Assembly (NCBI GenBank): GCA_039182965.1
Contig: JBCDBW010000002.1
Span: 15,063 to 79,062 of the forward strand
Source of the DNA: Verrucomicrobiota bacterium
GTDB taxonomy: Bacteria > Verrucomicrobiota > Verrucomicrobiia > Verrucomicrobiales > DEV007
Reading direction: 5' to 3'
DNA: 64,000 nt
This document shows, one piece after another, positions 6,045 through 50,438 of this stretch; position 1 is the stretch's first letter; each line of letters opens with the position of its first letter. The position numbers and the translations under genes are program-made. The notes beneath the pieces were generated by a model. The model saw only the letters and a list, made by a program, of their open reading frames with translations. It searched no databases and was not told where the DNA came from.

Positions 6045-6097
6045 TCACGGTGTCCCTTTCTGATGATGATATTGAATTAGTCACGAATTCAACACCA

Positions 6098-29517: not shown

Positions 29518-30843
29518 ATGACCATAATCAATCGCAGAGCACTCCTTCGAGGGATGGCAGCCAGTGCCGGCGCGGCCATAGGATCTAGTTTGTTGCCGGA
29601 GTTTGTTCGGGCGATGCCCCTTGCAAGGGGTGTGCCGAAGAGGGTCATTTTCTTTCTGCAGAACCAAGGTTTTGATCCGGCGACGGCAATTCCGAAGGGG
29701 CTGAAGGAGAGTTGTTCCCTAGCGGGGGTGACGTTGCCTGAGCCGGTGAATCCTCTAGAGCCGATCAAGGACATGCTTCACATTGTGAATGGTCTGCACG
29801 GTCAGCATACCAGTCCGTCGCACAGTGCCTACTTTGGAGCGCTGGGTGGTTATCGCGGGGGCATTGGTATTCCGGCGCGTGGCGCGACAATCGATCATGT
29901 GATCAGTCAGGAATTGCCGGAAACTATTCTACCACATCTTTGTATTGGGATGGATTCGTTAGAGAACATGCAGTCGCGTCCGACGTTGGCGACTTTGTCT
30001 GCGGCGGGACCAGGTCAGCCGATGTTCATGCATTCCAATCCGAATGACCTATACGAACTTTTGTTTGGCGGACTTTCGACGGGGGATGTGAAGCGTCGAT
30101 ACGAGGCGCGGTCGAAGGTTTACAACAAGATCGAAAAGCTCGCGGGTATTGCGGGCCGAGGACTTCCGGAGGGGGACCGGGAGCGCTATGGCAGTTACGT
30201 TGACGGTTTTCGTGACATCAATGGATTGCGTGATCGCTTGGCGGGTGTGACGGACCACTTGAAGGATTTTGCTCCGGAGTATGATGAAGGGTATACGAAT
30301 CCTGAATTCGAGACGGACTGGCATGATCGCCTTCTTGATATTGGCCTGGCGTCCTTGAAGTCTGGGATTACGAACACGCTTACGATTGGTTCCGGCCGGG
30401 GAGAGATTTTCGGAGCTTGGAAGGGTTTGGGGGTGGTTGAGCAGGGGCACAATCTTGGTCACATGCCGCAACCGGACAACGACATTTGGATCAAGATTCG
30501 CCAATACAATTGCCGGATGCTTGTCAAGATGGTGCGCGAGCTTGAGTCCATGCCGGAAGGTGAGGGGTCGATGATGGACAACACAGTGATTGTTTACACG
30601 AGCAACAATGCCGACAAGCAGCACACGAGCGGCAGCAATTGGCCATTTATTCTGATCGGCAACGGGGGCAGCCCCTTTAAGACTGGTCAATTTACGCAGA
30701 TGGAAGACAAGCGTCCGATCAACGCGATGTATTCGACTCTTCTTCATGCTGCCGGTGCGCCGCAGGATCGTTTCAACATGGACGAGAAGACAGCGGCCAC
30801 CCATGACACGAAGGTTGGACCGATCGAAGAACTTCTCGCCTGA
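29518..30843 (+). CDS. DUF1552 domain protein, Tat signal
   Basis: [26 protein letters not shown]1552-type blocks [18 protein letters not shown] and [22 protein letters not shown]. Confidence 0.85.
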
Positions 30844-30847
30844 ACCC

Positions 30848-33253
30848 ATGTCAAATCCCACCGCGATTTTTGGCGCGATTGGGCTTTTTACCGCGTCGTT
30901 AACGACTGTGGGAGCCGAGGAGCCGGTCCGTTCTTTCAAGTCTTTCGCGGAGCCGTTCCTGGTCGAGTATTGCTTTGACTGTCATGACGCGAGCACGGAG
31001 AAGGGCGGTGTCTCCTTGGAAGAGCTAGCGGACATCAGTCCCGACAACGCGGTTTTATGGAAGTCGGTTTGGGAGCAGGTGGCGCTGGGTGAGATGCCGC
31101 CTCGCGACAAGAAGAATCAACCGGAGAAGATGGATCGGTTTTGGTTGTCGCAGTGGATCACGGGAGGGCTGGAACAGGCTTTGGCTGACGAGGGTGGATT
31201 CTACACTCATCTCCATCCGGCCAAGGCGAATCATCTCGATCATGATCTTTTGTTTGGTGAGGCGGAAATTGAGTTCAAGCCGGCTTCAACGCCGGCACGG
31301 ATTTGGCGTATTCATCCCCAGGAGCATTTGGTGCGACTTAATGAATTGATCGACAAGGAGCCGGATTACGATCCGGAGAACCCGGGATTGCGTGCACGGG
31401 GTGATCACATTCCGTGGAATACCCTGGGCGAGGTGAGGGTCTATTTCGGGCTCGACCGCATCACCGGTTGGGTAGGGGGGAGTGCGGCTTATACGGCGGC
31501 GATCACCGGATTTCCGCCGATTCTCACCACGGCGAACGACCACGGGTTGCGGAACTATGCGATGCAATACTCCGTCAACGGGGCGGAGGCGACGCAGATT
31601 TCGCAGAACGCCGAGGATATTCTTGTTTTCATGGCGCATGGTCCGAAGGGCGAGCCGTATCAATTTGTCGACGATCCGAAGAAGGTGAAGCGGCCCGCCG
31701 AGTATGATGGGTTGGACATTCGCGGGACGATTCAGAGTTTGGTGTATTCACGGGATCCGCAGCGTCCTCTGACTCCGGTTTACGAATTGCTGAAGGAGCC
31801 GGGCGTCACGGATGAGAAGATTCGAGCGGCGGTTGATTTTCTTTTTGAGGCGCTGACCTTCCGTCCACCGACGAAGAAGGAAGCGAAGACCTATGTTCGC
31901 ATGGTGCAGGAAGCGATTGCGGATCTTGGGGAGGAAGAGGGTGCGATCCTGGGGCTGTCCTCGATTTTTCTTGATCGAGAGGCGTTGTTTCGCACGGAAC
32001 TTGTGGAATACGGCACGCCGGACGAGCACGATCGGGTGATGTTGCAGGATTGGGAGTTGGCTCTTGCCGTCAATGGGGCATTCAGCTATCTCCCGCCGAA
32101 TTCGGAGCTACGCCAGGCGGTTCTTGACGGTCGCATGAAAACGCGTGAGGACGTTGAGCGTGAGGTTGCGCGAATTATAGAGGATCCCAGCATTCGGAAG
32201 CCGCGGGTGCTTCAGTTTTTTAGGGAGTATTTTGACTATGATAGGGCGGGTCGCATTTGTAAGGACACGGCTGCTTTGAAGAAGGCCGCGGGCGGCAATG
32301 ACACGAGGAGATACACCGAGGCAATGTACGCCGCGACTCAAAGCACCGATCGCCTTATCGAGCTGATTCTTGAGGAGGACCGCGACGTTCTCTCTGAGAT
32401 ACTAACCACGGATCGCGTTGTTTATGATCGTCGGAACGACACTTTGTATTACAGCACTCACGAGAATCTGAAGAATCCCAAGCCGAAGCCCCATCCTGAG
32501 AAGCGTAACAAGAAGATCGAACCCACGCCTGAGGAGAAGGGACACACCATTCTACCCGACGGTGAAAGAATCAGCGTTCGAGTGCCGGCTCTTCGCTATT
32601 ACAGTGGCAATTCTGATCGGATATTGACCACCGCTCCGAAGGAAGAGCGCATGGGAATTCTTACGCATCCGGCGTGGCTCGTTTCGCACACGGACGCAAT
32701 GGACAACCATGCGATTCACCGTGGCAAGTGGGTTCGGGAGCGCTTACTTGGGGGGGCGGTTCCAGATGTGCCGATCACGGTTGATGCCCAACTTCCCGAT
32801 GAACCAGGCACGACCTTGCGCCACCGGATGAGGGTGACGTCTGAGGAGTATTGCTGGAGTTGTCATGACAAGATGGATCCGCTGGGTTTTCCTTTTGAGA
32901 TGTATAATCATATTGGTTTGTATCGCACGACCGAATATGGCGAGCCGGTCGATACGAGCGGGGAGATTATCGACAGTGGCGATCCTTCTATTGATGGGCC
33001 GGTTACGGATGCATTGGATCTGATTCGGAAACTTGCGGAGAGTGAGCGTGTCGAGCAGGTGTTTGTGCGTCACGCGTTCCGTTATTGGATGGGGCGTAAC
33101 GAGACTCTCAACGATGCTCCGATTCTCCAAGAGGCCTGGCGCGCGTATCGCGACAGTGGGAGTATGAATGCGTTGATTACTTCGCTGGTGACTTCGGATG
33201 CATTCCTTTACCGCCAGGTGACGCCGAAGCGTAAGGGCATTGCTTCCGAGTAG
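30848..33253 (+). CDS. PSCyt3/PSD (DUF1587-DUF1592-DUF1595-DUF1588-DUF1585 family) protein
   Basis: ATG 30848, 4 nt after the DUF1552 stop, gives signal peptide MSNPTAIFGAIGLFTASLTTVGA. CFDCHDASTEKGGVSLEEL. C-terminal CWSCHDKMDPLGFPFE. Confidence 0.85.
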   Translation: MSNPTAIFGAIGLFTASLTTVGAEEPVRSFKSFAEPFLVEYCFDCHDASTEKGGVSLEELADISPDNAVLWKSVWEQVALGEMPPRDKKNQPEKMDRFWLSQWITGGLEQALADEGGFYTHLHPAKANHLDHDLLFGEAEIEFKPASTPARIWRIHPQEHLVRLNELIDKEPDYDPENPGLRARGDHIPWNTLGEVRVYFGLDRITGWVGGSAAYTAAITGFPPILTTANDHGLRNYAMQYSVNGAEATQISQNAEDILVFMAHGPKGEPYQFVDDPKKVKRPAEYDGLDIRGTIQSLVYSRDPQRPLTPVYELLKEPGVTDEKIRAAVDFLFEALTFRPPTKKEAKTYVRMVQEAIADLGEEEGAILGLSSIFLDREALFRTELVEYGTPDEHDRVMLQDWELALAVNGAFSYLPPNSELRQAVLDGRMKTREDVEREVARIIEDPSIRKPRVLQFFREYFDYDRAGRICKDTAALKKAAGGNDTRRYTEAMYAATQSTDRLIELILEEDRDVLSEILTTDRVVYDRRNDTLYYSTHENLKNPKPKPHPEKRNKKIEPTPEEKGHTILPDGERISVRVPALRYYSGNSDRILTTAPKEERMGILTHPAWLVSHTDAMDNHAIHRGKWVRERLLGGAVPDVPITVDAQLPDEPGTTLRHRMRVTSEEYCWSCHDKMDPLGFPFEMYNHIGLYRTTEYGEPVDTSGEIIDSGDPSIDGPVTDALDLIRKLAESERVEQVFVRHAFRYWMGRNETLNDAPILQEAWRAYRDSGSMNALITSLVTSDAFLYRQVTPKRKGIASE

Positions 33254-33277: not shown

Positions 33278-34678
33278 CTACATTGGAGCGATCCGTTTTG
33301 AGCCGACGTCGGTGGTGAGCATCACGTGGGCGTTGAAACTGCGGTAAATCAGGTCGTTTTTGATTTCCTGGTGGTCGGCTGAGTCCCAAAGATTGACGAA
33401 CTCCCATGGATCTTCTTGCAGATCGTAGAGCTCTCCGGAGTTTTTTCCGTGGTATACGCTCAGCTTGTATCGCTCATCGCGATACATCGTGGCGAAGCTT
33501 CCGTCCCCGCCGGTGAAGAAACTGTCGAGGGAATCGAAATATTCACAGCGGACGAAGTCCCGGTGGTGATCGGGCGTGGCTTCACCTTCGAGGATCGGGG
33601 TGAGGCTTTTGCCTTGGGCGTAATCGGGTTGAGGCAGGCCGGCGAGGTCGAGGATGGTTGCGGTCATGTCGAGCAGTTCGACGAGAGCGTCGCTGCGAAG
33701 GTCCTGTTTGAATCTGCCGGGGCATGAGAAAATGAGCGGGACGCGCACGAGTCCTTCGTAGAATCGGCATCCTTTGTACATGAGTCCGTGATCTCCGAGG
33801 GTTTCGCCGTGATCGCTGGTGAAGATGATAATCGTGTTCTCCCGTTGACCGCTTTCGTCGAGGTATGCGAGCAGGCGCCCGAATTGATCGTCGATTTGGG
33901 CGATCATCGCGTAGTAGAGGGCTTGCTTTTGTTTTGCTTCGTGTTGTTCCGGGGTTTGGACTTCTCCTTGGAAATCGACGTTTGCCAGTTGGGCCTGTTG
34001 TTCGAGATCGCTTGTTTTGAAATGCGGGCCGGGCATTTCATCGGGGTTGAATTGGTCGGCGTAGGATTTGGGAGGGATGAATGGTGGGTGGGGATCGTAG
34101 ATATTGACGGAGAGGAACCAAGGGCCGTTGCGCGATTCGTTGAAGAACTCGAGGGCGCGTTCGGTGGCCCAGGTGGTTTGGTGGAACTCGGTGGGAATGC
34201 GGTCTGTGCTTTCGCGCATGGCATTGAGGTCGCCTCCTTTTTTGCGGACCCATTCCGCGTAGTCGTGTCCTTCGGGCCAGTCGTCGCGTGGAGCGTGGCT
34301 GAATTTCCAGTAGCGATAGCCATCGTCGAGACGGGGTTCCGTGCGTTTTCCGGAGCTTTGGAGGTGGAATTTGCCGATGTTTCCGCAGTCGTATCCGCTA
34401 TCGGCGAGCAGTTTGCTGATGAGGGGTGGGTGATCGGGGAAAGTGTCGTTGCCGTTTCGGGTGTTGTGGAGGCGGCTGGGATACATGCCGGTCATGAAAC
34501 TGGAACGACTTGGCGTGCAGATGGGGCTTTGGCAGTAGGTGGTGGTGAAGCTGGTGCCTTCGGAGACGAGACGGTCAATGGTCGGGGTATGCACATAGGG
34601 ATTACCGAGGGCGCCGATCGTGTCGAAGCGTTGTTGGTCCGTGCAGTAGAGGAGAATATTCGGGTGTGTGTTACTCAT
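33278..34678 (-). CDS. sulfatase (S1 family) without signal peptide (predicted cytoplasmic)
   Basis: ATG 34678 (MSNTHPNILLYCTDQQRFD...) or TTG 34690. The catalytic core begins within 10 residues of either start. CTPSRSSFMTG. 8-nt overlap (ATGAGTAA) with the tctA stop. Confidence 0.88.
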   Translation of the reverse strand: MSNTHPNILLYCTDQQRFDTIGALGNPYVHTPTIDRLVSEGTSFTTTYCQSPICTPSRSSFMTGMYPSRLHNTRNGNDTFPDHPPLISKLLADSGYDCGNIGKFHLQSSGKRTEPRLDDGYRYWKFSHAPRDDWPEGHDYAEWVRKKGGDLNAMRESTDRIPTEFHQTTWATERALEFFNESRNGPWFLSVNIYDPHPPFIPPKSYADQFNPDEMPGPHFKTSDLEQQAQLANVDFQGEVQTPEQHEAKQKQALYYAMIAQIDDQFGRLLAYLDESGQRENTIIIFTSDHGETLGDHGLMYKGCRFYEGLVRVPLIFSCPGRFKQDLRSDALVELLDMTATILDLAGLPQPDYAQGKSLTPILEGEATPDHHRDFVRCEYFDSLDSFFTGGDGSFATMYRDERYKLSVYHGKNSGELYDLQEDPWEFVNLWDSADHQEIKNDLIYRSFNAHVMLTTDVGSKRIAPM

Positions 34679-36176
34679 TGCTTCCGTCAACGTTACCGGG
34701 GAGTTTGTTTTTGCGTGCGAGTTGCTTGTTTCTCACGATTGGCATGATCAGTAATAGGAGCGATATTCCGCAGAATGCCAGTGAGAGGGGGCGGGTGACG
34801 AGCGGCAGGAAGCTGCCTCCTGATTGCATGAGTCCGGCGACGAGGTTTTCTTCAGCGACCGGTCTGAGGACGAAACCGATGACGAAGGGGGCGAGGGGGA
34901 TTTTGAATCGGTCCATGGCGAATCCAGCAATGCCGAACGCGAGCATGACCCAGACGTCGAAGAAGCGGTTAGCCAACGCGTAGGAGCCGATCACGCAGAA
35001 GGTCATAATTACGGGGACGAGGATGTATCGCGGGACGGAGCCGAGGCGTGCGATCCATCTGACGGACGCGATCATCATGAAGACCATGCAGACATTGGCC
35101 CAGAAGTATGATCCCGTGATGGCGTGGACGATTTCTGGATCGGATTCGAAGAGCATGGGCCCTGGTGCGAGGCCGTGGATGACGAAGGCACCGAGAAGGA
35201 TGGCATCGATGACGCTGCCGGGGATTCCGAGGGCGATGAGGGGGATGAGGGCGCCGCCGACGGTGGCGTTATTGGCGGATTCGGAAGCGACGACACCGTA
35301 GTCGCAGCCTTTTCCGAATTCGTCGGGTGTTTTTGAAGCGTTACGGGCGGCGGAGTAGGCCATGACCGAGCCGATGTTGGCACCGACGCCGGGGAGGATG
35401 CCGACCCAGGTGCCGATGAGGCTGCTCCTGAGGATGTTAACGGCTTGCTGTCGCCATTCGGTGAGGGTGAGGAACATGCCTTTGCGGTTTCCTTGAATAT
35501 CGCTATTGGAGGTTGCCGTGTGACGAAGGGCTTCGTTTAAGATTTGGCTCAGGGCGAAGAGGCCGATGAGGACGGGGAGAAGTTTGAAGCCATCGTTGAG
35601 TTCGGAAATGCCGAGGGTAAGTCGGATTTGACCGGTGCCGGGTGCGACGCCGGGCATGGCGATTAGGATACCGAGGAGGCCTGCGAAGATGCCTCGGATT
35701 TGGGATTTGCCGCCGACGCTGGCGATGAGGACGAGGGCCATGAGGACCATGGAGAAGAACTCGAATGGGCCCATGCGAGTGGACCATTTGGCCATGGGTC
35801 CGGCAAGGAGAATGAGGAATAGCCAGGAGAAGATGCCTCCCGCAAAAGAGGCGAGCACGCCGAGGCCGAGGGCGCGGCCGGGACGACCGGACTTCGCCAT
35901 GGGGTAGCCATCGAGCGTGGTCATCATGGATGCGGGGGTGCCAGGCATGCGCATGAGGGTGGCGGTAATGAGTCCGCCGCTGACGGAGCCCACATACATC
36001 GCGACGAGTAGAATCAGGGCGTCGCTTCCATTCATGGAGTACGTGAGCGGCAAGGTGAGCGCGATGAGCATTGCCCCGGTGAGGCCGGGAGTCGCGCCGA
36101 CGAGGATGCCGAGGGCGGTGCCGATGAGAATCCATCCGGCAGCGCCGGGGTCTGAGATGAATGTCAGTCCTTCCAT
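34671..36176 (-). CDS. tctA: tripartite tricarboxylate transporter (TTT) large permease TctA
   Basis: 501 aa, polytopic. GATPGLTGAMLIALTLP and TLDGYPMAKSGRPGRALG are typical of TctA/DUF112. Confidence 0.9.
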   Translation of the reverse strand: MEGLTFISDPGAAGWILIGTALGILVGATPGLTGAMLIALTLPLTYSMNGSDALILLVAMYVGSVSGGLITATLMRMPGTPASMMTTLDGYPMAKSGRPGRALGLGVLASFAGGIFSWLFLILLAGPMAKWSTRMGPFEFFSMVLMALVLIASVGGKSQIRGIFAGLLGILIAMPGVAPGTGQIRLTLGISELNDGFKLLPVLIGLFALSQILNEALRHTATSNSDIQGNRKGMFLTLTEWRQQAVNILRSSLIGTWVGILPGVGANIGSVMAYSAARNASKTPDEFGKGCDYGVVASESANNATVGGALIPLIALGIPGSVIDAILLGAFVIHGLAPGPMLFESDPEIVHAITGSYFWANVCMVFMMIASVRWIARLGSVPRYILVPVIMTFCVIGSYALANRFFDVWVMLAFGIAGFAMDRFKIPLAPFVIGFVLRPVAEENLVAGLMQSGGSFLPLVTRPLSLAFCGISLLLLIMPIVRNKQLARKNKLPGNVDGSNE

Positions 36177-36188
36177 ATTTGGGTTGTT

Positions 36189-37535
36189 TTACGGCAAGTC
36201 GATAACGAGGACCTGAGTGAAGAGATAGAAGCAACCGAAGCCGAGCGCGAGTCCGGCACCGACGAGGATGAAGACGGGGCGGATGCCGATGGGTCGTCCT
36301 TTGAGCCAAGCCAAGCCAAGCAGGGGGACGTAGACGAGGGTGGCGACGGGAAAAGAGACGCGGCCGATTTGCATGGCGAGGACGTAAGCGGCGCTCAAGA
36401 GCAGGACGGCGATCATGAGGGGCCAGCGGAGTGGGGCACTACTTGAGTTTGGTTCTCTGCTTGATCGGCCCGCGTTTTTTCGGAGTTCGTCAATTAGAAT
36501 CCAGGCTGCACAGAGGCTGAGAATTACAATGAGGAAGTTCGGTAAGTTGGGGAGGCGATCGAGTTCGGCGATTCCCACGGATGCGATTGCTTTTTCGCGG
36601 CGATCGATTTCGCGGCGCAGCGCGTCTCCTCGAAGAACGACTGGATCCACCTTCATTTCCGCGAGAGTTTCGCGGAGGGCTTCGCTGTTCATCGCCCGTT
36701 CGAGGGCATCTGCGAAGACTTCGATTCGCTCTTGTGGGGTACCGCGTGGGGCCCACCAGAATTGGATGCCTGAGCTTACGACATCGTATCCTTGCTCAGT
36801 GGCGGTGGGCAGATCTGGTGCCTCGGGATGGCGATCTTGTCCGAGAAACGCGAGCGCGCGGATGCCGGCATCGCGGAATTGGAAATATTCGGATATCGAG
36901 AAAGCGGTGGCGTCGATGTGACCGCCTTGGAGGGACGCGAAGCGTTTGGCGCCGCCGCCGGTTTGGACGTATCGGAATGCGCTGCCAGGTGCTTGGGCTT
37001 CGAGTTGGCGTCCGGCGAAATAACTGGGGGCCCCGACATTGGCGCCGAAGACGATGGTGTCGGGCTCGGCACCGGCTGTTTCCATCAGAGAGGCGAGGTC
37101 TTGGTGGGGAGAATTTTCGTCGACGCAGACGACCATCCCGGCGGTGCCGGTGGCGGCGATCGGGGTGAAGGCTTCGGGGCCGTAGGGGGTGATGCCGGCG
37201 TACTTCGCGGTGATGATGCCTTCGTGGAGATTGAGGAGAGTGTATCCATCTGCGAGCGCGTCTTTGACCCGGCGGCTGCCGATGGAACCGCCGGCTCCGG
37301 GCACGTTAATGACGACGAGCGGCTGGGGGAGGAGGTTTTCGTCGCGGATTGTTTTTTGGACGACCCTTACAAACTGATCGCTGCCCCCTCCGGCGCCGAA
37401 GGGAACGATGATTTTGACGGGCTTGTGGGGATAGGATTGGGAGGGCTTGTCGTCGGAAGGATTACAAGCTGCCAGCAGTAGAGCTGTGGCACAGAGCCAC
37501 CACACTCGTATTCCCAGGTTGTATGAGTCCCGCAT
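36189..37535 (-). CDS. TctC (Bug-family solute-binding lipoprotein) fused to a TctB-like 4-TM domain
   Basis: Lipobox LLLAAC. TctC blocks KIIVPFGAGGGSDQFVR, NVPGAGGSIGS and ADGYTLL. The C-terminal ~130 aa has four hydrophobic helices (FLIVILSLCAAWIL...LMIAVLLLSAAYVLA...VYVPLLGLAWL...FILVGAGLALGFGCFYLF). Confidence 0.8.
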   Translation of the reverse strand: MRDSYNLGIRVWWLCATALLLAACNPSDDKPSQSYPHKPVKIIVPFGAGGGSDQFVRVVQKTIRDENLLPQPLVVINVPGAGGSIGSRRVKDALADGYTLLNLHEGIITAKYAGITPYGPEAFTPIAATGTAGMVVCVDENSPHQDLASLMETAGAEPDTIVFGANVGAPSYFAGRQLEAQAPGSAFRYVQTGGGAKRFASLQGGHIDATAFSISEYFQFRDAGIRALAFLGQDRHPEAPDLPTATEQGYDVVSSGIQFWWAPRGTPQERIEVFADALERAMNSEALRETLAEMKVDPVVLRGDALRREIDRREKAIASVGIAELDRLPNLPNFLIVILSLCAAWILIDELRKNAGRSSREPNSSSAPLRWPLMIAVLLLSAAYVLAMQIGRVSFPVATLVYVPLLGLAWLKGRPIGIRPVFILVGAGLALGFGCFYLFTQVLVIDLP

Positions 37536-37590
37536 CGCATCTAGTGAAGCGGGGAATGATAGCGAGCGTCAATGGAAGTCGATGGGCAGG

Positions 37591-37809
37591 TTACGGGGTG
37601 AGGAGGAGCTCGAGGAACCGGTCCCGGGCGGCGAGATTGGAGCCGATGAGACGTGAGGCTTTGTCTTTCTCGCGTGAGGAGGCCTTTCCAGCGACGACGC
37701 GCCGGAGGAGGCGTCCCTCCTTGCGTTTGAGGGGCGTTGCCGGGGCCTTTTCAGGGATTGGGAGGGGATGATCGTTGGAGGTGGGGTGGCTGGTGGAGAT
37801 GTTTTTCAT
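37591..37809 (-). CDS. small basic hypothetical protein (72 aa), speculative
   Basis: ORF preceded by AAAAAGGAAAAGTCTCC before the ATG. No similarity recognised. Lies in the 680-nt gene-poor gap upstream of tctCB. Confidence 0.25.
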   Translation of the reverse strand: MKNISTSHPTSNDHPLPIPEKAPATPLKRKEGRLLRRVVAGKASSREKDKASRLIGSNLAARDRFLELLLTP

Positions 37810-37924
37810 GGAGACTTTTCCTTTTTGTTTACCGGGATACCGGCATCACGGGGAAGTCTTTCACGAAAAACGCACCCAATTCGGGTAAGGAAGGGGGTGA
37901 GACGCCTGCTTGGGGTGAGCCGGT

Positions 37925-38074
37925 TTAACGACTTCCTTTCTCTACTTGGGAGATCGAGGAGGCTTCCGAAGGATCGTCTCTGGAGGAAGAGAAATTTTTA
38001 TCCAGCCAGTGCAGGAGGGCGATGACGGCAATGACGATGATAATGAGGCTTTGTGGTTTGATGGTGGTGTCCAT
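37925..38074 (-). CDS. small single-TM hypothetical protein (49 aa), speculative
   Basis: Hand translation: MDTTIKPQSLIIIVIAVIALLHWLDKNFSSSRDDPSEASSISQVEKGSR, then TAA. Preceded by AAAAAGGACC before the ATG. Below the ORF-track length cutoff. Confidence 0.2.
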   Translation of the reverse strand: MDTTIKPQSLIIIVIAVIALLHWLDKNFSSSRDDPSEASSISQVEKGSR

Positions 38075-38139
38075 GGTCCTTTTTCTTTGGTTATTGTCAC
38101 AGGGCGCTGGAGGGGCATGGATGGCACCATTCCACTTGA

Positions 38140-38182
38140 GAATGACAAAGTGGGGGGCGGATGGATGACAGTTTTGTCATTC
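38140..38182. repeat. perfect 10-bp inverted repeat GAATGACAAA / TTTGTCATTC with a nested alternative hairpin
   Basis: Left arm 38140-38149, right arm 38173-38182. The right arm can alternatively pair with ATGACA at 38165-38170 (loop GTTT). Sits just downstream of the DUF1080 stop at 38218. Confidence 0.4.
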
Positions 38183-38217
38183 CTGGCCAAGGGGGTGAGA
38201 GGGAGGGGTCTGGTCGG

Positions 38218-39219
38218 CTAGTCGACGACGGGATGGAAAAAGATGTTCCGGTATTGGACGGAGGTATGATCGCCCTGCAGGTAGAGGGGACCTGGAGAGG
38301 TGATATCGGATTGGTAGGCGCCCATGGTGTTGCCGACAATGGGTTGGTTATCGATGACCGTTTCTCCATTGAGGATGACGGTGGCGTGGCGATCGACGAT
38401 GGTGATTTCGTATTTTTGCCATTCACCGCCTACCTTGCCGGCCATCTTCGTAGGTTCGATGCGGCCAAAGATGGCGCCGACCCCCTGGATGCCCTGCATG
38501 CGGGAGTCACGATCGACGACTTGGGCTTCGTAGGCGCCACGGACGTAAATGCCGCTATTGCCGCCGGGGGGGACGTTGAATTCGATTTCGAGTTTGCCAT
38601 CGCCGAAGACACCTTCGGTGCGGAGGTTTCCGTAGCGTGAGAAGGGGTCGAAGGTTTCTTTTGGGGTTTCGTTGACGAGGATGCCGTCGGCGGCTTTCCA
38701 GCCGTTGCGGTGTTCGGGGTTGGAGAGTTTCCAACCGGAGAGGTCGGTGCCGTTGAAGAGGGAGACCGGCTCGCCGAATTTTACCTGAGAGAGGTCGGGG
38801 GCATCCGGGAGGGGCGGGAGACGTTTACCTGTGTGCGTGAGGGTGGATTGATCGGGAAGGGTGGTCACGAGGGTGATGGTGTCGCCATCGACGGTTGCCG
38901 TATGTGAGCAGGGAACGCGGTCTCCGGTGGGCGGGCCGCCGGGGAACTCGGGGTTACCCACTCGAAGGTTTCGGGTGAAGGTGAGTTCGTTATTGGCGAA
39001 GTCGAAGTCGGCGAGGTTCTTTGATTGTCCGACGGACCAGAGTTGGCCGGTGAACTGGTTGTCGACGACCTCAAGGGTGAGCCAACCGGCGTCGCTATTG
39101 TTCATTTTGATGGCCCAGTTGCCGATGAATTCACCGGCGCCGGCAAACGCGGATAGTGGGAGGAGGGTGATGCCGAAAAGGACAATCAGGAAGCGATCAA
39201 TCGGCGGGTGAGTGATCAT
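38218..39219 (-). CDS. secreted DUF1080 (3-keto-disaccharide hydrolase family) protein with N-terminal beta domain
   Basis: ATG 39219 overlaps the upstream TAA (TAATG) and gives signal peptide MITHPPIDRFLIVLFGITLLPLSAFA. SLFNGTDLSGWKL and LYLQGDHTSVQYRNIFFHPV motifs. Confidence 0.85.
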   Translation of the reverse strand: MITHPPIDRFLIVLFGITLLPLSAFAGAGEFIGNWAIKMNNSDAGWLTLEVVDNQFTGQLWSVGQSKNLADFDFANNELTFTRNLRVGNPEFPGGPPTGDRVPCSHTATVDGDTITLVTTLPDQSTLTHTGKRLPPLPDAPDLSQVKFGEPVSLFNGTDLSGWKLSNPEHRNGWKAADGILVNETPKETFDPFSRYGNLRTEGVFGDGKLEIEFNVPPGGNSGIYVRGAYEAQVVDRDSRMQGIQGVGAIFGRIEPTKMAGKVGGEWQKYEITIVDRHATVILNGETVIDNQPIVGNTMGAYQSDITSPGPLYLQGDHTSVQYRNIFFHPVVD

Positions 39220-40778
39220 TATTTCTTTTTCTTTGAGTGAGAGATGGAGGGGCGGGCGACTTTTTCGTTGGGGCCGCGCATAACGTAGGGTTCCCACTGG
39301 GCTTTTGCTTTTTCCCATTCTTCAAGGGTGCGGGTGGGATACCAGGCGGGCCAGCCGATCGAGTTGAAGTCCAGACTGTCGGGGTTATCGCGAACCCACA
39401 CATCGACGGTATCGGTGGGGCAGGACTCGGGGAAGGCGTTTTCGGCGCGGAAGGTATCGGAGACCCCTTGGTCATCGATCACGTTTTCGCGCCAGTCTTG
39501 GAGTTCGGCGAGGAGTTTCGCTTTGATATCGGCGTATTCCGGGTCATCGGCGACATTGTTAACTTCGTGGGGGTCTTTCTTAAGGTCGAAGAGTTCGAAA
39601 TCGGGTTTGGTGGGCGCGAAAAAGGCGGCTTGTTCGGGGTTGAGTTGGCCTTTCATGTTGAGGATGTTCATTTCGGCGAGCATGGGGTAGGCGCCCTCTT
39701 TGTATCGGTTGTATTGGCACCAAGCGCGCTCGGGCATTAGGTTTTGGATGAGTTTGTAGTCTTTCGAGCGGATGGCGCGCATGGAGTCGTGGGTTTCGTC
39801 CATCTTATCGCGCGCGGCGAAGACGTATTGGCGGTTTTTCACATCGTCGCTGAAGAGGCTTTTTCCGTGGAGCGGGACGGGCGCTTCAACCCCAGCGGCT
39901 TCGAGGATTGTGGCGCAGAGGTCGATGGATTGGACGAGGTCGTCGCTGACTTGACCGGGTTCGATTTTTCCGGGCCAGCGGACGATCATGGGGATGCGGA
40001 TTCCGCCGTCGTAGAGGAATTGTTTGCCGCGGATGTGGCAGCGGCCGTGGTCGCCGATAAAGATGACGATTGTATTTTCGGCGAGGCCTTCGTCGTCGAG
40101 GCGTTTCAGAACTTCGCCGACCTGGCGATCGACGAGTTGCATTTGTTCGAGGCCGTTTGCCCAGTCGCGTTTGACGAAGTCGGTGTCGGGATAGTAGGGG
40201 GGCAGTTCGACGTCGGCGATATCGATGGGGCGGTCGGGGTCGCGATCCCACGTGCGATGGGTGCCACCGAAGGTAATGCGGGCGAAGAAGGGTTGATCGG
40301 GCTCACGTTCGTTCCAATCGCGGCCCATAAAGAGATCGGCGTGGCTATTGGGCGTAAAGTTGCAGTCGATTTTCTTGCTGAGAAGGGCGGTGAAATACCC
40401 AGCGTCGGCGAGCAGGTGAGGGACGGGTTTGATCCCGTGGGGGAGGGGCTGTTTGTCGTGTTCGCGGTGTTGATTGGCGCGGATATAATTTTGGTGGAAG
40501 CCGGTCATCATGGCGGACCGGGAAGTGGAGCAGACCGGCGAGGTGGTGAAGGCGTTTTCGTATCGGATGCCTTCTTCGGCGAGTTTATCGACGTGCGGGG
40601 TGTGGAGGCCTTTGGTGCCGTAGCATGAGAGGTCGGCGGACCAGTCTTCGATGGTGATCCACAATACGTTAGGGGAATCCGCGGTTTCATCCAGATGCGG
40701 CTTTGCTGCGTCCAGGGATGTGATACCGGCGGTGGCGAGGGCGGTGCATGCGAGGAGGTATTTCAGGGGGGGATTCAT
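39219..40778 (-). CDS. sulfatase (S1 family) with atypical C-S-T-S-R active-site motif
   Basis: Signal peptide. NVLWITIEDWSADLSCYG. VCSTSRSAMMTG, verified on DNA at 40518-40532 as TGC TCC ACT TCC CGG. Confidence 0.88.
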   Translation of the reverse strand: MNPPLKYLLACTALATAGITSLDAAKPHLDETADSPNVLWITIEDWSADLSCYGTKGLHTPHVDKLAEEGIRYENAFTTSPVCSTSRSAMMTGFHQNYIRANQHREHDKQPLPHGIKPVPHLLADAGYFTALLSKKIDCNFTPNSHADLFMGRDWNEREPDQPFFARITFGGTHRTWDRDPDRPIDIADVELPPYYPDTDFVKRDWANGLEQMQLVDRQVGEVLKRLDDEGLAENTIVIFIGDHGRCHIRGKQFLYDGGIRIPMIVRWPGKIEPGQVSDDLVQSIDLCATILEAAGVEAPVPLHGKSLFSDDVKNRQYVFAARDKMDETHDSMRAIRSKDYKLIQNLMPERAWCQYNRYKEGAYPMLAEMNILNMKGQLNPEQAAFFAPTKPDFELFDLKKDPHEVNNVADDPEYADIKAKLLAELQDWRENVIDDQGVSDTFRAENAFPESCPTDTVDVWVRDNPDSLDFNSIGWPAWYPTRTLEEWEKAKAQWEPYVMRGPNEKVARPSISHSKKKK

Positions 40779-40796: not shown

Positions 40797-43547
40797 TTAT
40801 TGGACACCGGAGAACTGGTCGACATTCATCTCTTGTTCCCAGGTGATGAGTTGTTTCGTGAGTTTTTGGACGATCTCTGGGTGGGCTTCCGCGAGATCCG
40901 CTTGTTCGTAGCGATCTTTTTCGACGTTGTATAGGTTTACTTTGCCGCTGCGGTAGGCGAGCAATTTCCATGGTCCTTCGCGAACGGAGGCGTAGAGGTC
41001 TTGGTAAGCTCGGTATGCGAAGACTGGCTGACCGCGTTCAAGAGTGGCATTATTTTTGATGGTGGACAAGAGGGAGACGCCATCGAGGTCTTCGTGATTA
41101 GCGGGGTTGCCGCCGGCGATTTCGACGAAGGTGGGGAAGAGGTCCGTGGTTTGGACGATGCTGGTATTCGTGGCGCCTTTCGCGGGAGTGACGCCGGGCC
41201 AATGAACGAAGAACGGGACGCGGGCGCCGCCTTCGCCGAGGGTGTCGGTGCGTTTGCTGCCGCGGAAGGGTGGATTTTCCCACCAGCTGCCTTGATCGGA
41301 GGTAAACACGATGAGGGTATCTTTGTCGACGCCCTTGGCTTTGAGGGTGTCGCGCACGCGACCGACGGATTCGTCGACGGAGGCGATCATCGCGGCGTAT
41401 TGGGCTTCGGCACCTTCGAGGCCTTTGTCTTCGAAATGTTTGACGAGGTCTTTTCGGCCGATGTGGGGTTTGTGGACGCCGTAGTACCAGAGGGAAATCA
41501 TGAAGGGTTGATTGCGGTCGTAGTCTTCGATGAAGGCAACGGTTTCGTCCGTAAGTTTGTCGGTGAGGTATCTTTCCTTTTCCTCTTCCAAGACGTCGGA
41601 GTATTTGAAATACGGCGGGTAATAGGACCCGGGGTGGCCAGCGTTCGCGGTTCCGATTTGGCGATCGAAGCCTTGTTTGACAGGGTGGAATTTTTCGTGA
41701 CCGAGGTGCCATTTACCGACGAAGAGGTTGTAGTATCCGAGTCTTTTGAGAGCTTCGGCGTAGGTGGTGTGTTCGAGGGGGAGCCAATTGCGGCATGGGA
41801 ATTGGGCGGGGTCGTCGGGCCAGAGATTGAATTCCACATCGGTGCGTCCGAAGTCATCGAAGTCGGGGTGTTTGGGGCCGCCGGGAATATGGCGGACGAT
41901 TTGGAGGCGAGCGGGGTGTTTGCCGGTAACGAGGGTGCTTCGGCTGGGGCTACAGGTGGGGCTGGCGATGTAGGCTTGTTCGAAGTCGATACTTTCGGAG
42001 GCTAGTTGGTCGATGCGGGGTGTTTCGTAGACAGGATGTCGATATCCGACGTCTGTCCAGCCGAGGTCATCGACGAAGAAGAGAACGATATTCGGTTTGT
42101 CATCCGAGCGGTCCTTTCTTACTGCGGGATCGAGAGGGGCGTTGGAATTGGGGATCTTTGCGGAGTGGCTTTTGGTTACGGATTGATGCTTGGGGTCATC
42201 GGCCAGGTTGGTGAACTCATTCGGATCGGAACGATGGTCGTAGAGTTCTTCCGAGCCATCGGCGTATTTGATGTATCGCCAGTTTTGGGAGCGGACGGCG
42301 TTGTTGCCGGGACCCTGGGTGGTGAGGGCGACCCGATTTTTCTGGGCGTCGGGATTCTTCAGGAGGGGGACGAGACTTTTTCCGTCGAGGTTAGGCGGCG
42401 ACTCGAGTTCGCAGAGTTCGGCGAGGGTGGGGTAGACATCGATGAGGCTTACGGGCCGCCGGGACTGCCTGCCTCTTTTGATGCCGGGGGCAGCGACGAT
42501 GAGGGGGACGTTAGTCGTTTGTTCCCAGAGGGCAAATTTTTCCCAGTGTTCTTTATGGCCGAGGTGATATCCGTGGTCAGACCAGAGCACGACGACCGTG
42601 TTATCGGCGATCGGGCTTTTCTCCAGGGCGTCGAGGAGGCGACCGACCATGGCATCGGCGAAGGTGGCGGAGGCGAGATAGGCTTGGACGGCATCGGGCC
42701 ATTTTTTGTTTTCCGTGATCCATTCGTGCCAATGGCGCCGGGCCATATCCTGGCCGGCGGCGGGGACATCATCGAGATCATCTGGGGGAGCTTCCGGGGT
42801 ATAATCGGAATCGGGGTATTGGTCGAAGTATGAGGCGGGGGTATACCAAGGAATGTGTGGGCGGTAGATGCCGACGGCGAGAAAGACGGGCTGCTCATGA
42901 TCTTGCGCGAGGATTTCTTCGGCCCATGAGACGACTTTGGCGTCGCCCATTTCATCGTCTTCGATCTCGAGGGCGGCCCAGTCAAAGAAGCCTTTGTAGA
43001 ATTTTTTGTTTCCGTTGGTGGGAACCTGAGGGGGGAGCGCTTCTTTTGGGAGTTGTTGTTGTTTTGAGGGGAAGAAGTCGTCCCAAGGTTCCGGGTCGAG
43101 ATAGCCTTCGTGCCCCCAGTTGCTCAGGGAAGCGGCGTGATAGAGTTTTCCTCCGCCGAGGGTGAGGTAGCCGTTGTCTTTAAAAAGCTGCGGCAGGGTT
43201 GTGGCGTCTTTGAGAGTGTTCGATTCGCGCCAGTCTTGCCAGTTGTAGTAGACGCCGCTGGAATTGGGGTGGAGACCAGTCATCACCGCGACGCGGGAAG
43301 GGTTGCACGCGGGGGCGGCACAGTGAGCGTTGGTGAAGAGGACCCCGTTTTGGGCGAGCCGATCGATGTGGGGTGTATGGGCTTTTGGCTCGTGGTTGAG
43401 GGCTCCGATGCCGTTATTGAGGTCATCGATGGCGATGAAGAGGACATTATAACGCGAGGCTTCATCCGAGTGTGGTTTTGCCGCGACGGGCGAAGCCACG
43501 ACGACGGACAGAGTGAGGATGCCGGCGAGGTAGAGGAGGCGGGGCAT
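40797..43547 (-). CDS. tandem (double-domain) sulfatase
   Basis: Signal peptide. Domain 1: NVLFIAIDDLNNGIG and CNPSRVAVMTG. Domain 2: NIVLFFVDDLGWTDVGY and CSPSRSTLVTG. Same domain order as the 18042 gene. Confidence 0.9.
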   Translation of the reverse strand: MPRLLYLAGILTLSVVVASPVAAKPHSDEASRYNVLFIAIDDLNNGIGALNHEPKAHTPHIDRLAQNGVLFTNAHCAAPACNPSRVAVMTGLHPNSSGVYYNWQDWRESNTLKDATTLPQLFKDNGYLTLGGGKLYHAASLSNWGHEGYLDPEPWDDFFPSKQQQLPKEALPPQVPTNGNKKFYKGFFDWAALEIEDDEMGDAKVVSWAEEILAQDHEQPVFLAVGIYRPHIPWYTPASYFDQYPDSDYTPEAPPDDLDDVPAAGQDMARRHWHEWITENKKWPDAVQAYLASATFADAMVGRLLDALEKSPIADNTVVVLWSDHGYHLGHKEHWEKFALWEQTTNVPLIVAAPGIKRGRQSRRPVSLIDVYPTLAELCELESPPNLDGKSLVPLLKNPDAQKNRVALTTQGPGNNAVRSQNWRYIKYADGSEELYDHRSDPNEFTNLADDPKHQSVTKSHSAKIPNSNAPLDPAVRKDRSDDKPNIVLFFVDDLGWTDVGYRHPVYETPRIDQLASESIDFEQAYIASPTCSPSRSTLVTGKHPARLQIVRHIPGGPKHPDFDDFGRTDVEFNLWPDDPAQFPCRNWLPLEHTTYAEALKRLGYYNLFVGKWHLGHEKFHPVKQGFDRQIGTANAGHPGSYYPPYFKYSDVLEEEKERYLTDKLTDETVAFIEDYDRNQPFMISLWYYGVHKPHIGRKDLVKHFEDKGLEGAEAQYAAMIASVDESVGRVRDTLKAKGVDKDTLIVFTSDQGSWWENPPFRGSKRTDTLGEGGARVPFFVHWPGVTPAKGATNTSIVQTTDLFPTFVEIAGGNPANHEDLDGVSLLSTIKNNATLERGQPVFAYRAYQDLYASVREGPWKLLAYRSGKVNLYNVEKDRYEQADLAEAHPEIVQKLTKQLITWEQEMNVDQFSGVQ

Positions 43548-43565: not shown

Positions 43566-44870
43566 TTATGTGATGAGTTCGTTGATGAGGCCTGTGGAGT
43601 CTCCAAAAGAATCCGTATTGACCCCGCAGCCCTTGAGTTGGGAGAGCCAGAGGTTGCAGAGGGGGGTTTTGGGATCATCCATGACGATATGTTGGCCTTG
43701 TTTGAAGCCGGCTCCCCCTCCGGCGATTAGCGTTGGGCAATTTCGGAGGGTATGCACGGAGAAGAGGTTCGTGCCGAAGGTCAGGGATGTTTGGTCGAAG
43801 AGACTGGAGCCATCGGCTTCCTTTGATGCTTTGAGTTTATCGATGAAACGGGCGAGGAATTTCGCATTGTGGAAATCCCGCATCTCGGACACGTCGCGAC
43901 GTTCGCCGTGGGAGTAGTGACTCATTGTATGCGCACTGATTCCGGCGCCGAGGCTAGAGATCATGGTATCGACGGGCATGCGGTAAGTGAAGACGCGGGT
44001 GGCGTCGACTTGCATTGCGGCGACCATCAGGTCGACCATTACTCCCATTTCCTCATAGCCGATGAGGGAATCGGAAGGTTCGGTGAGGGGTGGGTCGGGT
44101 TGTTTCTTTTCGATGCCGAGCCATTGTTCTTCTTTTGAGAGGCGAACTTCGATTTCGCGAACGGACTCGAAGTATTCATCGAGTTTCTCGTTATCAGACT
44201 TGCTGATTTTGCCTTGCACGGATTTGGCGTCGGACATCACCGTATCGAGGACGCTGCGTTGTTCGGAGAGGCGGGCTTGGCGTTCGGCGAGGGGGGTATT
44301 TTCGTTGGAGAAGAGGCGATGGAAGGCGGCGACTGGGGTTTCGAGGCCTGAGACTGGTTTCCCTTGTCGGTTCCATGCGAGTGAGAGGCCGGGACCGTGT
44401 CCATCGCCGCCGGAGTTGCCTTTTCCCTTGGCGCAGAGTTGGATTGAGGCGAACCGAGTGTCCGTGCCGAGTTGTTCAGCTGCGAGTTGGTCGACGGAAA
44501 TCGTATTGTGAAAGCTTTGGCCAGGGACGGCGTATCGATTGGCACCGGTTAGCCAGAAAGTGCTGCCGCTGTGACCGTCCTGCGAATCTTTATGCATGAG
44601 ATTTTGGAGGAAGGTCAGGTCGTGACGATGTTTTTCGAGGGGTTTGAGTATATCGGGAAACGTGTAATCGGTGCCGACGTCGTCTTGATGGGGAAACCAT
44701 TTATCGGCGGTGACGCCGAAGCCCATGCCGAGCCAGACCATACGTTTTGGGCTGACGGGAGCGGTCGCAGCGGCGGCGAATTTGCGGAATCCGAATGATT
44801 CGAGGAAAGGCAACGCGATGGCGGCAGAGCTGCTTTTCAGGATGGCGCGACGAGTGATGTTGTTTTTCAT
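43566..44870 (-). CDS. DUF1552 domain protein, Tat-like signal
   Basis: ATG 44870 lies 7 nt after the upstream stop and gives MKNNITRRAILKSSSAAIALPFLESF. Paralogous to 29518 (HSGSTFWLTG, SHYSHGE, FGTNLFSVHTLRNCPTLIAGG). Confidence 0.85.
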   Translation of the reverse strand: MKNNITRRAILKSSSAAIALPFLESFGFRKFAAAATAPVSPKRMVWLGMGFGVTADKWFPHQDDVGTDYTFPDILKPLEKHRHDLTFLQNLMHKDSQDGHSGSTFWLTGANRYAVPGQSFHNTISVDQLAAEQLGTDTRFASIQLCAKGKGNSGGDGHGPGLSLAWNRQGKPVSGLETPVAAFHRLFSNENTPLAERQARLSEQRSVLDTVMSDAKSVQGKISKSDNEKLDEYFESVREIEVRLSKEEQWLGIEKKQPDPPLTEPSDSLIGYEEMGVMVDLMVAAMQVDATRVFTYRMPVDTMISSLGAGISAHTMSHYSHGERRDVSEMRDFHNAKFLARFIDKLKASKEADGSSLFDQTSLTFGTNLFSVHTLRNCPTLIAGGGAGFKQGQHIVMDDPKTPLCNLWLSQLKGCGVNTDSFGDSTGLINELIT

Positions 44871-44877
44871 GGTGACG

Positions 44878-49523: not shown

Positions 49524-50333
49524 TTATTCGAGGGGCATCAGTTCGATGTTTCGGAACCAGACGGGTTGGCCCTCGGCTTGGAGGGCGATGTGTCCGAAGC
49601 TCAGGGGAATGGGGGCCCCGGCCTTGAGGAGAGCCTCGGCGGATTCGACGCGCCCTTCGGGATCGAGTTGGGGGTGTTGGTATCGGAGGACTTCAGTGCC
49701 ATTGACGTGGTGAATGATCTCCTCATTTCCCCGGACCTCGATTTCGACCTGGACCCACTCATCTGGGGGAAAGGTGGAGGCGGTGGATTGGACGATGTGT
49801 TGGGTGACGAGTTGGCCGTCGATTTCTAGATTGGTGCCTGGGGTGCACACGTTTCCGGTGGGGCGCTTTCCTTTCCCTGCGTCGGCGAGGAACTGGAACT
49901 CGAGGCTGACGGGGAATTCCTGATCGAGCCCCATGCTTTGCGGGGACTGGGAGTGGATCATGAAACCGCTGTTGAGGTTCACGAACTTGGGGGCATCGGG
50001 CATCATTTCTCCGATGAAGCGATATTCCATGCGGAGTCGGTAGTGGGAATAGGGGATGTTAGTGTAGAGGTGTCCGTATTGGTTATCGAATTTTTCGTAG
50101 TCGTCGTAGGTGACTTTAAGGATGCCGTCTTCCACTCGAAACGTATCGGCAAAGTTTTCTCCGAGAGGGTGGCCGGTGATTTTGACGGTCCAGCCGTCGA
50201 GGTTCTTTCCGTTGAAGAGCGACACCCAATCAGAGTGATCTTCGGTGGTCTCTGGAGAGGGCTTGTTCGCGAGCAAGATCGGGGATGAGATTAGGGCGAG
50301 GAGCATGGTGATGAGGCGAGTGATGGGGTTCAT
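49524..50333 (-). CDS. secreted DUF1080 (3-keto-disaccharide hydrolase family) protein
   Basis: ATG 50333 gives MNPITRLITMLLALISSPILLA; the alternative ATG is 50378. SLFNGKNLDGWTV and GHIALQAEGQPVWFRNIELMPLE motifs. Confidence 0.85.
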   Translation of the reverse strand: MNPITRLITMLLALISSPILLANKPSPETTEDHSDWVSLFNGKNLDGWTVKITGHPLGENFADTFRVEDGILKVTYDDYEKFDNQYGHLYTNIPYSHYRLRMEYRFIGEMMPDAPKFVNLNSGFMIHSQSPQSMGLDQEFPVSLEFQFLADAGKGKRPTGNVCTPGTNLEIDGQLVTQHIVQSTASTFPPDEWVQVEIEVRGNEEIIHHVNGTEVLRYQHPQLDPEGRVESAEALLKAGAPIPLSFGHIALQAEGQPVWFRNIELMPLE

Positions 50334-50438
50334 GCTGCTTATTTTGGCACTGTTGGCGTTGGGGGGATAGCTTTTCATCGCGTGATGGACGGGCCCACGG
50401 ATTCCGATTAATTTTCCTTCGAAGTATTTTTTCCTATT

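Follow-up and report, generated by a model that had tools for sequence, protein, structure and literature searches.

A 64,000-nucleotide (nt) stretch of a Verrucomicrobiota bacterium genome (contig JBCDBW010000002.1, positions 15,063 to 79,062; hereafter the window) carries on its minus strand three adjacent genes that, in transcription order, encode a TctC-TctB fusion protein and TctA, the components of a tripartite tricarboxylate transporter (TTT), and a sulfatase without an export leader (open reading frame [ORF] map and Pfam). By the same two sources the transporter is a TTT, and no ATP-binding cassette (ABC) genes lie within the unit. We consider it likely that these genes form a self-contained three-gene uptake-and-desulfation unit. 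Our reading is that a small sulfated carboxylate is imported and then desulfated in the cytoplasm, and we give this reading a probability of about 0.7; the direction of transport and the class of substrate are both predicted from the sequence. An earlier note on this DNA had tied a TTT importer to a cytoplasmic sulfatase in this way, and the comparative evidence on the leader, on the recurrence of the adjacency, and on a second sulfatase subfamily supports that proposal. The coordinates and gene order given in that note (fusion, 12-nt gap, tctA, 8-nt overlap) were borne out in every detail, and the features of the unit are as follows.

36189 to 37535, minus strand: tctC-tctB fusion gene, 448 amino acids (aa), encoding a periplasmic solute-binding protein joined to the small membrane subunit.
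37464 to 37535, minus strand: N-terminal export or lipoprotein-type signal of TctC, MRDSYNLGIRVWWLCATALLLAAC, with a hydrophobic segment at residues 6 to 24 (translation).
36615 to 37370, minus strand: TctC ligand-binding domain, residues 56 to 307, with the PFGAGGGSD motif and R88, R89, K197, and R198 (alignments to BugD, 25hk, and 4x9t).
36192 to 36545, minus strand: TctB-like membrane part, residues 331 to 448, four helices (Pfam TctB profile positions 32 to 137 of 137).
36177 to 36188, minus strand: 12-nt spacer between the tctCB stop (TAA) and the tctA ATG at 36176, aacaacccaaat.
34671 to 36176, minus strand: tctA, large permease subunit, 501 aa.
34671 to 34678, minus strand: 8 nt shared by the end of tctA and the start of the sulfatase gene, ATGAGTAA.
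33278 to 34678, minus strand: leaderless Cys-type S1 sulfatase, 466 aa.
34505 to 34519, minus strand: formylglycine motif CTPSR, C54 to R58 (translation), 99 to 100% conserved.
37536 to 38217, minus strand: intergenic region of 682 nt upstream of the unit (ORF map).

We looked for an upstream in-frame start that could give the sulfatase a signal peptide and found none. The only alternative start is a TTG at 34690, four codons upstream of the ATG, and an in-frame stop (TGA) lies 19 codons upstream. The N terminus of the protein, MSNTHPNILLYCTDQQR, contains neither a hydrophobic stretch nor a twin arginine, and its best 10-residue Kyte-Doolittle score was 0.64. The other seven sulfatase ORFs of the window scored 1.97 to 3.02, each with a hydrophobic N-terminal segment before the NI/V-x-x..DD core, which agrees with the earlier statement that every other complete sulfatase here has a leader. 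In the AlphaFold2 model of the unit sulfatase (pTM 0.86), the first beta-strand occupies residues 7 to 13; because this strand starts at residue 7 and the stop lies only 19 codons upstream, there is no room for a leader. We then evaluated the orthologues. Relatives of the sulfatase were found in at least 579 species in a scan of one genome per species, and the locus counts out of 80 given here refer to the best 80 of these loci (69 to 97% identity). At most 11 open codons precede the PNIL core in 63 of the 80 species-level orthologues, and in the remaining 17 the start codon lies 3 to 7 codons before that core (ATG in 15 of 17). Database homologues of 489 to 515 aa were considered as leader-bearing forms and ruled out, as they reflect miscalled starts or an internal insertion. 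The absence of a Sec or Tat leader, claimed earlier for this one protein, thus holds across the whole orthologue family.

The enzyme itself belongs, by its motifs, to an active-looking, leaderless family of Cys-type S1 sulfatases under strong constraint. Pfam Sulfatase (PF00884) covers residues 6 to 347 (E value = 8.6e-52) and is accompanied by SGSH_C, and the model aligned with S1 structures at a TM-score of about 0.8 (Foldseek). The formylglycine region reads C54-T-P-S-R58-SSFMTG and matches the C/S-x-P/A-x-R plus x-x-x-[LM]-T-G signature. D14-Q15, C54TPSR58, K103/H105, H197, D289-H290, and K302 are 99 to 100% conserved in 81 orthologue sequences, in which 37% of positions are at least 98% identical; apart from the formylglycine motif, these residues probably bind metal and sulfate, judging from their positions in the motifs. 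More than 120 database homologues share 70 to 78% identity with the enzyme, and nearly all are 463 to 472 aa long. The best 80 loci comprise 31 from Verrucomicrobiota, 45 from Planctomycetota, and one each from Hyphomicrobiaceae, Alcaligenaceae, Dehalococcoidia, and an unclassified genome, so that the orthologue group spans Verrucomicrobiota, Planctomycetota, and a few Proteobacteria and Chloroflexota at 69 to 78% identity.

Next, we assessed how often the pairing with the transporter recurs, a check that the earlier note had called for. The tctA gene stands directly upstream of the orthologue on the same strand in 43 of the 80 genomes (26 of 31 Verrucomicrobiota and 17 of 45 Planctomycetota), is divergent from it in 2, and could not be judged in 8, where the upstream sequence is too short. 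By our own estimate, the chance of finding tctA directly upstream of a gene is about one in a few thousand. Furthermore, the genes of the transporter are themselves orthologous: the window tctA shares 56 to 68% identity with the tctA genes beside orthologous sulfatases, and the linked tctC genes share 45 to 60%. The distance from the tctA stop to the sulfatase start ranged from -20 to +249 nt across loci, being -8 nt in the window, was 20 nt or less in about two-thirds of loci, and was an overlap in at least six. The identical 8-nt overlap was seen in Stieleria varia (L098) and in the 97%-identical relative L009. In the window, the sulfatase ATG at 34678 sits within the end of tctA (...AATGAGTAA). 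The translational coupling by overlap that was proposed earlier is thus not conserved across loci, and what is conserved is the operon linkage; co-transcription of the unit is predicted.

The pairing also survives rearrangement. A Hyphomicrobiaceae locus has a convergent arrangement with unfused TctC, TctB, and TctA and a GntR/FCD regulator, a Planctomycetaceae group has tctA and the sulfatase divergent, and two loci have TctCB downstream on the opposite strand. Cultured carriers include Stieleria varia, Rubinisphaera italica, Rhodopirellula sp. SM50, and Falsirhodobacter algicola, and when we looked up the fused TctCB of Stieleria varia and of Rubinisphaera italica, tctA and the sulfatase lay downstream in both. 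Beyond the three genes the neighborhood is not conserved across loci. Other sulfatases are often close by in Verrucomicrobiota, and the PSCyt/DUF1552 pair that flanks the unit in the window also stands beside it in several Verrucomicrobiota loci. In the Rubinisphaera and Planctomycetaceae loci (L001 and L006), the three genes have only unrelated genes around them and no other sulfatase, and the link that the earlier note had drawn to the adjoining secreted sulfatases is accordingly not required.

We also inspected the 35 orthologue loci without tctA for an alternative transporter, and none emerged: the recurrent neighbors there are not transporters and comprise a cluster of KAS, FAD-oxidoreductase, FabZ-like, and FabI-like genes (Pirellulaceae), an alpha/beta hydrolase, and a Gfo/Idh/MocA oxidoreductase. 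The Pirellulaceae cluster comprises genes for one ketoacyl synthase, a pair of FAD oxidoreductases, and proteins resembling FabZ and FabI; in four loci without a TTT neighbor (L056, L065, L068, and L086), the sulfatase comes directly after this conserved cluster and is itself followed by a Ser/Thr kinase gene.

More distant relatives gave independent instances of the design. On a Falsirhodobacter algicola plasmid (L092), TctB-TctA-TctC is followed by a leaderless sulfatase of 49% identity and then by a second leaderless sulfatase. Directly after this operon (L092, 11891 to 13696) lies a gene for a ClC-type chloride channel, which may serve in anion (sulfate) efflux. In addition, a second, unrelated subfamily of leaderless sulfatases (N terminus M..FDSLNR, 24 to 25% identical) is TTT linked as well: a metagenome contig (L090, 848 to 5733) has LysR-TctC-TctB-TctA followed by a sulfatase of this subfamily, and Salipiger abyssi plasmid pPABY1 (L097, 6401 to 11001) has an operon of such a sulfatase with TctC-TctB-TctA. 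The reciprocal metagenome scan with TctA returned two loci only (L089 and L090), single-protein patterns being strict, and in L089 no sulfatase was present within the 400 nt remaining downstream of TctA. In Salipiger, Rhizobium, Chelativorans, and Phaeobacter, relatives of 33 to 48% identity are encoded within CUT1 sugar ABC operons. These results indicate that adjacency is retained through rearrangements across phyla and is shared by a second leaderless subfamily, which supports import followed by desulfation.

The maturation enzymes near the relatives fit a cytoplasmic site of action. A formylglycine-generating enzyme (FGE) is encoded near three of the four CUT1-linked relatives, with its gene inside the operon in Chelativorans and Phaeobacter and at a distance of about 4 kb in Salipiger, and these FGE genes are leaderless. 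An anaerobic sulfatase-maturating enzyme (anSME; TIGR03942, 382 bits versus a cutoff of 349 bits) adjoins the Dehalococcoidia orthologue. Leaderless sulfatases with importers in several lineages point to a recurrent design for which maturation machinery exists in the cytoplasm. By analogy with these relatives, cytoplasmic formation of formylglycine would be feasible for the window enzyme as well.

The transporter half of the unit has an unusual architecture. In the fusion protein, Pfam TctC (PF03401) covers residues 56 to 307 (E value = 5e-28, 98.8 bits versus a cutoff of 27) and Pfam TctB (PF07331) covers residues 331 to 448 (E value = 3e-10, 40.7 bits versus a cutoff of 29.1). By eye, and with no predictor, the N-terminal signal contains a lipobox-like LAAC. 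The AlphaFold2 model (mean pLDDT 89.6) shows a binding-protein fold over residues 40 to 320 followed by long helices at 331 to 359, 371 to 390, 395 to 410, and 418 to 442. The unit encodes no free-standing four-helix TctB; instead, the TctB region continues from the C terminus of TctC and its first helix is missing, and the C-terminal 118 residues are homologues of TctB helices 2 onward (alignment to the unfused 174-aa TctB of L005, and the model). According to the model, the TctC domain is in the place of TctB helix 1, so that the topology would stay consistent. Both Pfam domains are present in nearly all of the 120 listed homologues of the fusion. The fusion is the rule in Planctomycetota and in part of Verrucomicrobiota, and the components are unfused in Alphaproteobacteria. 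In 15 of 35 related loci, all from Verrucomicrobiota, the TctC domain is only about 93 to 99 nt from tctA, and the three products with such a reduced TctB segment that we inspected (L035, L067, and L081) keep a single C-terminal helix. For tctA, the match to Pfam TctA (PF01970) covers profile positions 3 to 423 of 423 (E value = 9.5e-144).

The TctC domain suggests what kind of ligand is taken up. Foldseek comparison with all solved TctC/Bug proteins (BugD, Bug27, TphC, MatC, and AdpC) gave target-normalized TM-scores of 0.77 to 0.86, and the ligands named in the matched structures are all carboxylates (aspartate, glutamate, malate, oxoadipate, and terephthalate), at an identity of only 23 to 27% to any characterized TctC. 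Invariant and near-invariant columns read from 51 orthologues include the PF-x-AGG-x-x-D motif. The PFGAGGGSD motif and the overall fold thus make carboxylate binding by this domain probable. Orthologues linked to the sulfatase conserve R88, R89, K197, and R198 (GSRR and QTGGGAKRF), whose positions hold uncharged residues in BugD, 25hk, and 4x9t; these basic residues would fit a ligand that bears a second anionic group.

The mechanism that we propose would run as follows. The TctC domain would be exported and anchored at both ends, through its N-terminal signal and through the C-terminal fusion to the TctB helices, and would catch a small anionic, carboxylate-bearing ligand in the periplasm. 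TctA would carry the ligand across the inner membrane, and the leaderless formylglycine sulfatase would cleave its sulfate ester in the cytoplasm, yielding a hydroxy-acid for catabolism and free sulfate. A gene for a CysZ/EI24-family sulfate transporter lies 25 kb from the unit (window 60052 to 60825, minus strand), and its product is a possible route for sulfate freed in the cytoplasm.

As to the ligand, we regard a sulfated sugar acid of monosaccharide size (a uronate or an aldonate) as most plausible, and, if import and desulfation are granted, it would be the leading class, although we hold this assignment with somewhat less than even confidence. It leads because of four observations. First, the TTT-sulfatase operon of Salipiger abyssi stands beside genes for an IlvD/Edd dehydratase and a sugar kinase, for two regulators (FCD and LysR), and for a leaderless FGE, a set typical of sugar-acid catabolism. 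Second, the Hyphomicrobiaceae have the FCD regulator mentioned above and, in one locus, an acid-sugar kinase of the DUF1537 family. Third, the wider relatives are linked to sugar transporters, and the Chelativorans operon also has rhamnose mutarotase, SDR, and FAH-family genes of 6-deoxyhexose pathways. Fourth, a TTT for galactarate/glucarate is known (PMC5812351). A bolder proposal takes the unit as the sign of a widespread pathway devoted to a single sulfated carboxylate in aquatic dissolved organic matter, such as a sulfated sugar acid, and as the first TTT for a sulfate ester. A single dedicated substrate would explain the 70 to 78% identity of the enzyme across phyla, and we think this proposal less likely than not.

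Several results weigh against our reading or its details. In 27 of the 72 informative loci, no TTT gene is present in the available sequence of up to 8 kb on each side of the sulfatase, and no FGE or anSME gene lies within the 64-kb window. The loci of the Planctomycetes-Verrucomicrobia-Chlamydiae (PVC) group have no adjacent catabolic genes, and the sugar-acid assignment draws on Alphaproteobacterial analogues and a few single loci. The sulfatase also scores below every NCBIfam equivalog cutoff, the best model being the arylsulfatase PRK13759 (274 bits versus 481), followed by PehA NF045661 (222 bits versus 900) and the choline-sulfatase TIGR03417 (211 bits versus 433). It is about equally distant (26 to 28% identity, query-normalized TM-score of about 0.8) from arylsulfatases, phosphonate monoester hydrolases, and carbohydrate sulfatases. 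We tried to place it in a single subfamily, and the attempt failed: PDB sequence search, NCBIfam, and Foldseek all put it at roughly the same distance from several clades, and the nearest structures with SulfAtlas labels fall in S1_46, S1_0, S1_7, S1_30, and S1_11, all at 20 to 28% identity.

The explanation that competes best keeps the same mechanism and changes the ligand to a non-carbohydrate sulfated hydroxy-acid, such as a sulfated algal or seagrass phenolic acid (4-sulfooxybenzoate or zosteric acid) or a small O-sulfated aliphatic acid. The arylsulfatases SpAS1 and SpAS2 are among the closest solved relatives, "arylsulfatase" is the best NCBIfam model, and TTT binding proteins for aromatic acids exist, that for terephthalate being an example. 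Gene context adds an acyl-CoA ligase directly upstream in the Alcaligenaceae locus and a shikimate-dehydrogenase-like gene that overlaps the sulfatase stop in one Hyphomicrobiaceae locus, but each of these contexts is a single locus. Set against them are the sugar ABC operons with 6-deoxyhexose pathway genes in which the wider relatives are embedded, the sugar-acid dehydratase and kinase that adjoin the Salipiger unit, and the DUF1537 acid-sugar kinase in another Hyphomicrobiaceae locus. On balance, we regard a non-carbohydrate ligand as an appreciable but minor possibility.

We consider it improbable that the unit serves sulfur scavenging rather than carbon catabolism, taking up any sulfate ester when sulfate is scarce in the manner of the pseudomonad ats cluster. 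That precedent, atsACBR, does belong to the sulfur-starvation genes (PMC3596284). Moreover, the sulfatase lies near TauD and luciferase-like monooxygenase genes in a Hyphomicrobiaceae locus (L021). Many carriers, however, were recovered from the sea (Tara Oceans, seawater, and Black Sea metagenome-assembled genomes). Seawater contains about 28 mM sulfate, so sulfur is not limiting at sea. The Verrucomicrobiota unit often lies among secreted sulfatases, and the very high sequence conservation suggests one specific substrate.

It is less probable still, and in our view very unlikely, that the enzyme is a phosphonate-monoester or phosphodiester hydrolase (SulfAtlas S1_0-like) whose transporter brings in an acidic phosphorus ester. 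The best sequence and structure matches do include RlPMH and BcPMH (2vqr, E value = 6e-47; query-normalized TM-score of 0.80), and these enzymes use formylglycine as well (PMC5066984). The PehA score, however, is far below its cutoff and lower than that of the arylsulfatase model, the true sulfatases SpAS1 and BT1918 (S1_46) match equally well or better, and the relatives adjoin sulfatase-maturing enzymes and other sulfatases. Finally, an exported sulfatase (owing to a miscalled start, a nonclassical route, or hitchhiking) acting in the periplasm next to the transporter is hardly credible: we found no support for it beyond the general expectation that PVC sulfatases are secreted, and it is opposed by the in-frame stop 19 codons upstream here and the 11 or fewer open codons in 63 of 80 orthologues, by an N terminus with neither a hydrophobic segment nor a twin arginine and a fold that starts at residue 7, and by the cytoplasmic types of the maturases adjoining the relatives.

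We also examined the surroundings of the unit in the window. The 682-nt region upstream of tctCB is presumably the site of a promoter and regulatory sequences, a tentative assignment. A consensus scan placed a terminator-like hairpin at 37887 to 37873 within this region, where it might close the upstream gene. Across the unit and its upstream region, matches to promoter and terminator consensus sequences were no more frequent than in shuffled sequence, no Rfam family was matched in the window, and no regulator gene adjoins the unit there. At the downstream end, a convergent PSCyt gene lies 24 nt beyond the unit.

The window as a whole has eight sulfatase genes, two of which are double-domain fusions: proteins of about 915 aa with two complete tandem sulfatase domains are encoded at 18042 to 20786 (plus strand) and at 40797 to 43547 (minus strand). 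A secreted sulfatase at 39219 to 40778 (minus strand) reads C-S-T-S-R, with Thr replacing the usual Pro/Ala of the formylglycine motif. PVC-specific pairs (DUF1549/DUF1553 with DUF1501, and PSCyt/DUF1592 with DUF1552) are interleaved with the sulfatases at 9094 to 12965, 29518 to 33253, and 43566 to 47535. The DUF1552 ORF (29518 to 30843) and the PSCyt ORF (30746 to 33253), both on the plus strand, overlap by 98 nt as listed, and the true start of the PSCyt ORF is probably further downstream than 30746. Three PF06439 3-keto-disaccharide-hydrolase (DUF1080) proteins are encoded at 6050 to 7588, 38218 to 39318, and 49524 to 50378, and Pfam recognized no glycoside hydrolase or lyase domain among the window ORFs scanned. 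The GC skew of the plus strand rises from about 0 (4 to 12 kb) to +0.36 (60 to 64 kb) independently of gene orientation, an unusually strong strand asymmetry.

In marine Verrucomicrobiota and Planctomycetota, sulfatases are generally regarded as secreted enzymes that trim polysaccharides. A highly conserved cytoplasmic sulfatase that at least 45 species, and cultured strains as well, pair with a carboxylate importer would point to a pool of small sulfated acids that are taken up whole. The unit also offers a handle for identifying the sulfated compound, because the TctC binding domain can be screened directly. The unit would also broaden the known ligands of the TTT family, which has been little studied. 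If the bolder proposal of one dedicated substrate is correct, the unit would provide the first TTT for a sulfate ester, with a binding protein covalently tethered through the TctC-TctB fusion, and the first physiological substrate for a large leaderless S1 clade. The tethered architecture is absent from the 2018 review of TTT systems, which mentions only rare TctA-TctB fusions (PMC5812351).

Among known systems, the characterized TTTs are TctCBA (citrate), SlcHFG (3-sulfolactate), Halomonas TctABC (galactarate/glucarate), TphC, AdpC, and MatC (PMC5812351). They share with the window unit the three components, the TctC fold, and the PF-x-AGG-x-x-D motif, and they set precedents for sulfur-containing acids and sugar acids as ligands. 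In contrast, the window TctC is fused to a TctB without its first helix, and no sulfatase accompanies any of the known systems. On the enzyme side, the best sequence and structure matches are SpAS1/SpAS2 and RlPMH/BcPMH (4upi, 4upl, 2vqr, and 2w8s) and BT1918 S1_46 (7oz8), which have the same formylglycine alkaline-phosphatase-superfamily fold with a C-terminal subdomain but only 26 to 28% identity to the unit sulfatase. To our knowledge, the physiological substrates of SpAS and PMH are themselves not known. The Alphaproteobacterial CUT1-linked relatives (33 to 49% identity), for which we found no characterization, resemble the window unit in that their sulfatases are leaderless and encoded between transporter genes, with import before desulfation, and differ in using ABC sugar systems instead of a carboxylate-type TTT.

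Two characterized systems come closest in concept. The sulfatase AtsA of Pseudomonas has no signal peptide. The Pseudomonas ats cluster couples this arylsulfatase with the sulfate-ester ABC transporter encoded by atsRBC (PMC3596284) and, like the window unit, has an uptake system for sulfate esters encoded beside a sulfatase that acts after import. Unlike the window unit, it relies on an ATP-driven ABC transporter instead of a TTT secondary transporter, is regulated by sulfur starvation, has broad specificity and a sulfatase of another subfamily, and implies no carboxylate requirement. The GlcNAc-6-sulfate cluster of Bifidobacterium breve UCC2003 has a single-component permease as its transporter and encodes its own anSME. 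Its sulfatase is intracellular: according to Egan et al. (2016), as cited in PMC7326374, the cell takes up a sulfated monosaccharide that other organisms have freed and desulfates it internally as a carbon source, much as we propose here. Its substrate, by contrast, is neutral except for the sulfate, and it belongs to another phylum and another habitat. We searched the literature for TTT together with sulfatase and for cytoplasmic, cytosolic, or intracellular sulfatases, and no such module was described in the papers searched. The earlier statement that a module of this kind had not been characterized thus stands for the TTT-coupled form and fails for the concept, which is known from atsACBR (PMC3596284) and from B. 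breve (PMC7326374). The window unit is of neither the ats nor the B. breve type: its transporter is of another class, its sulfatase is of another subfamily, and its ligand is implied to be a carboxylate.

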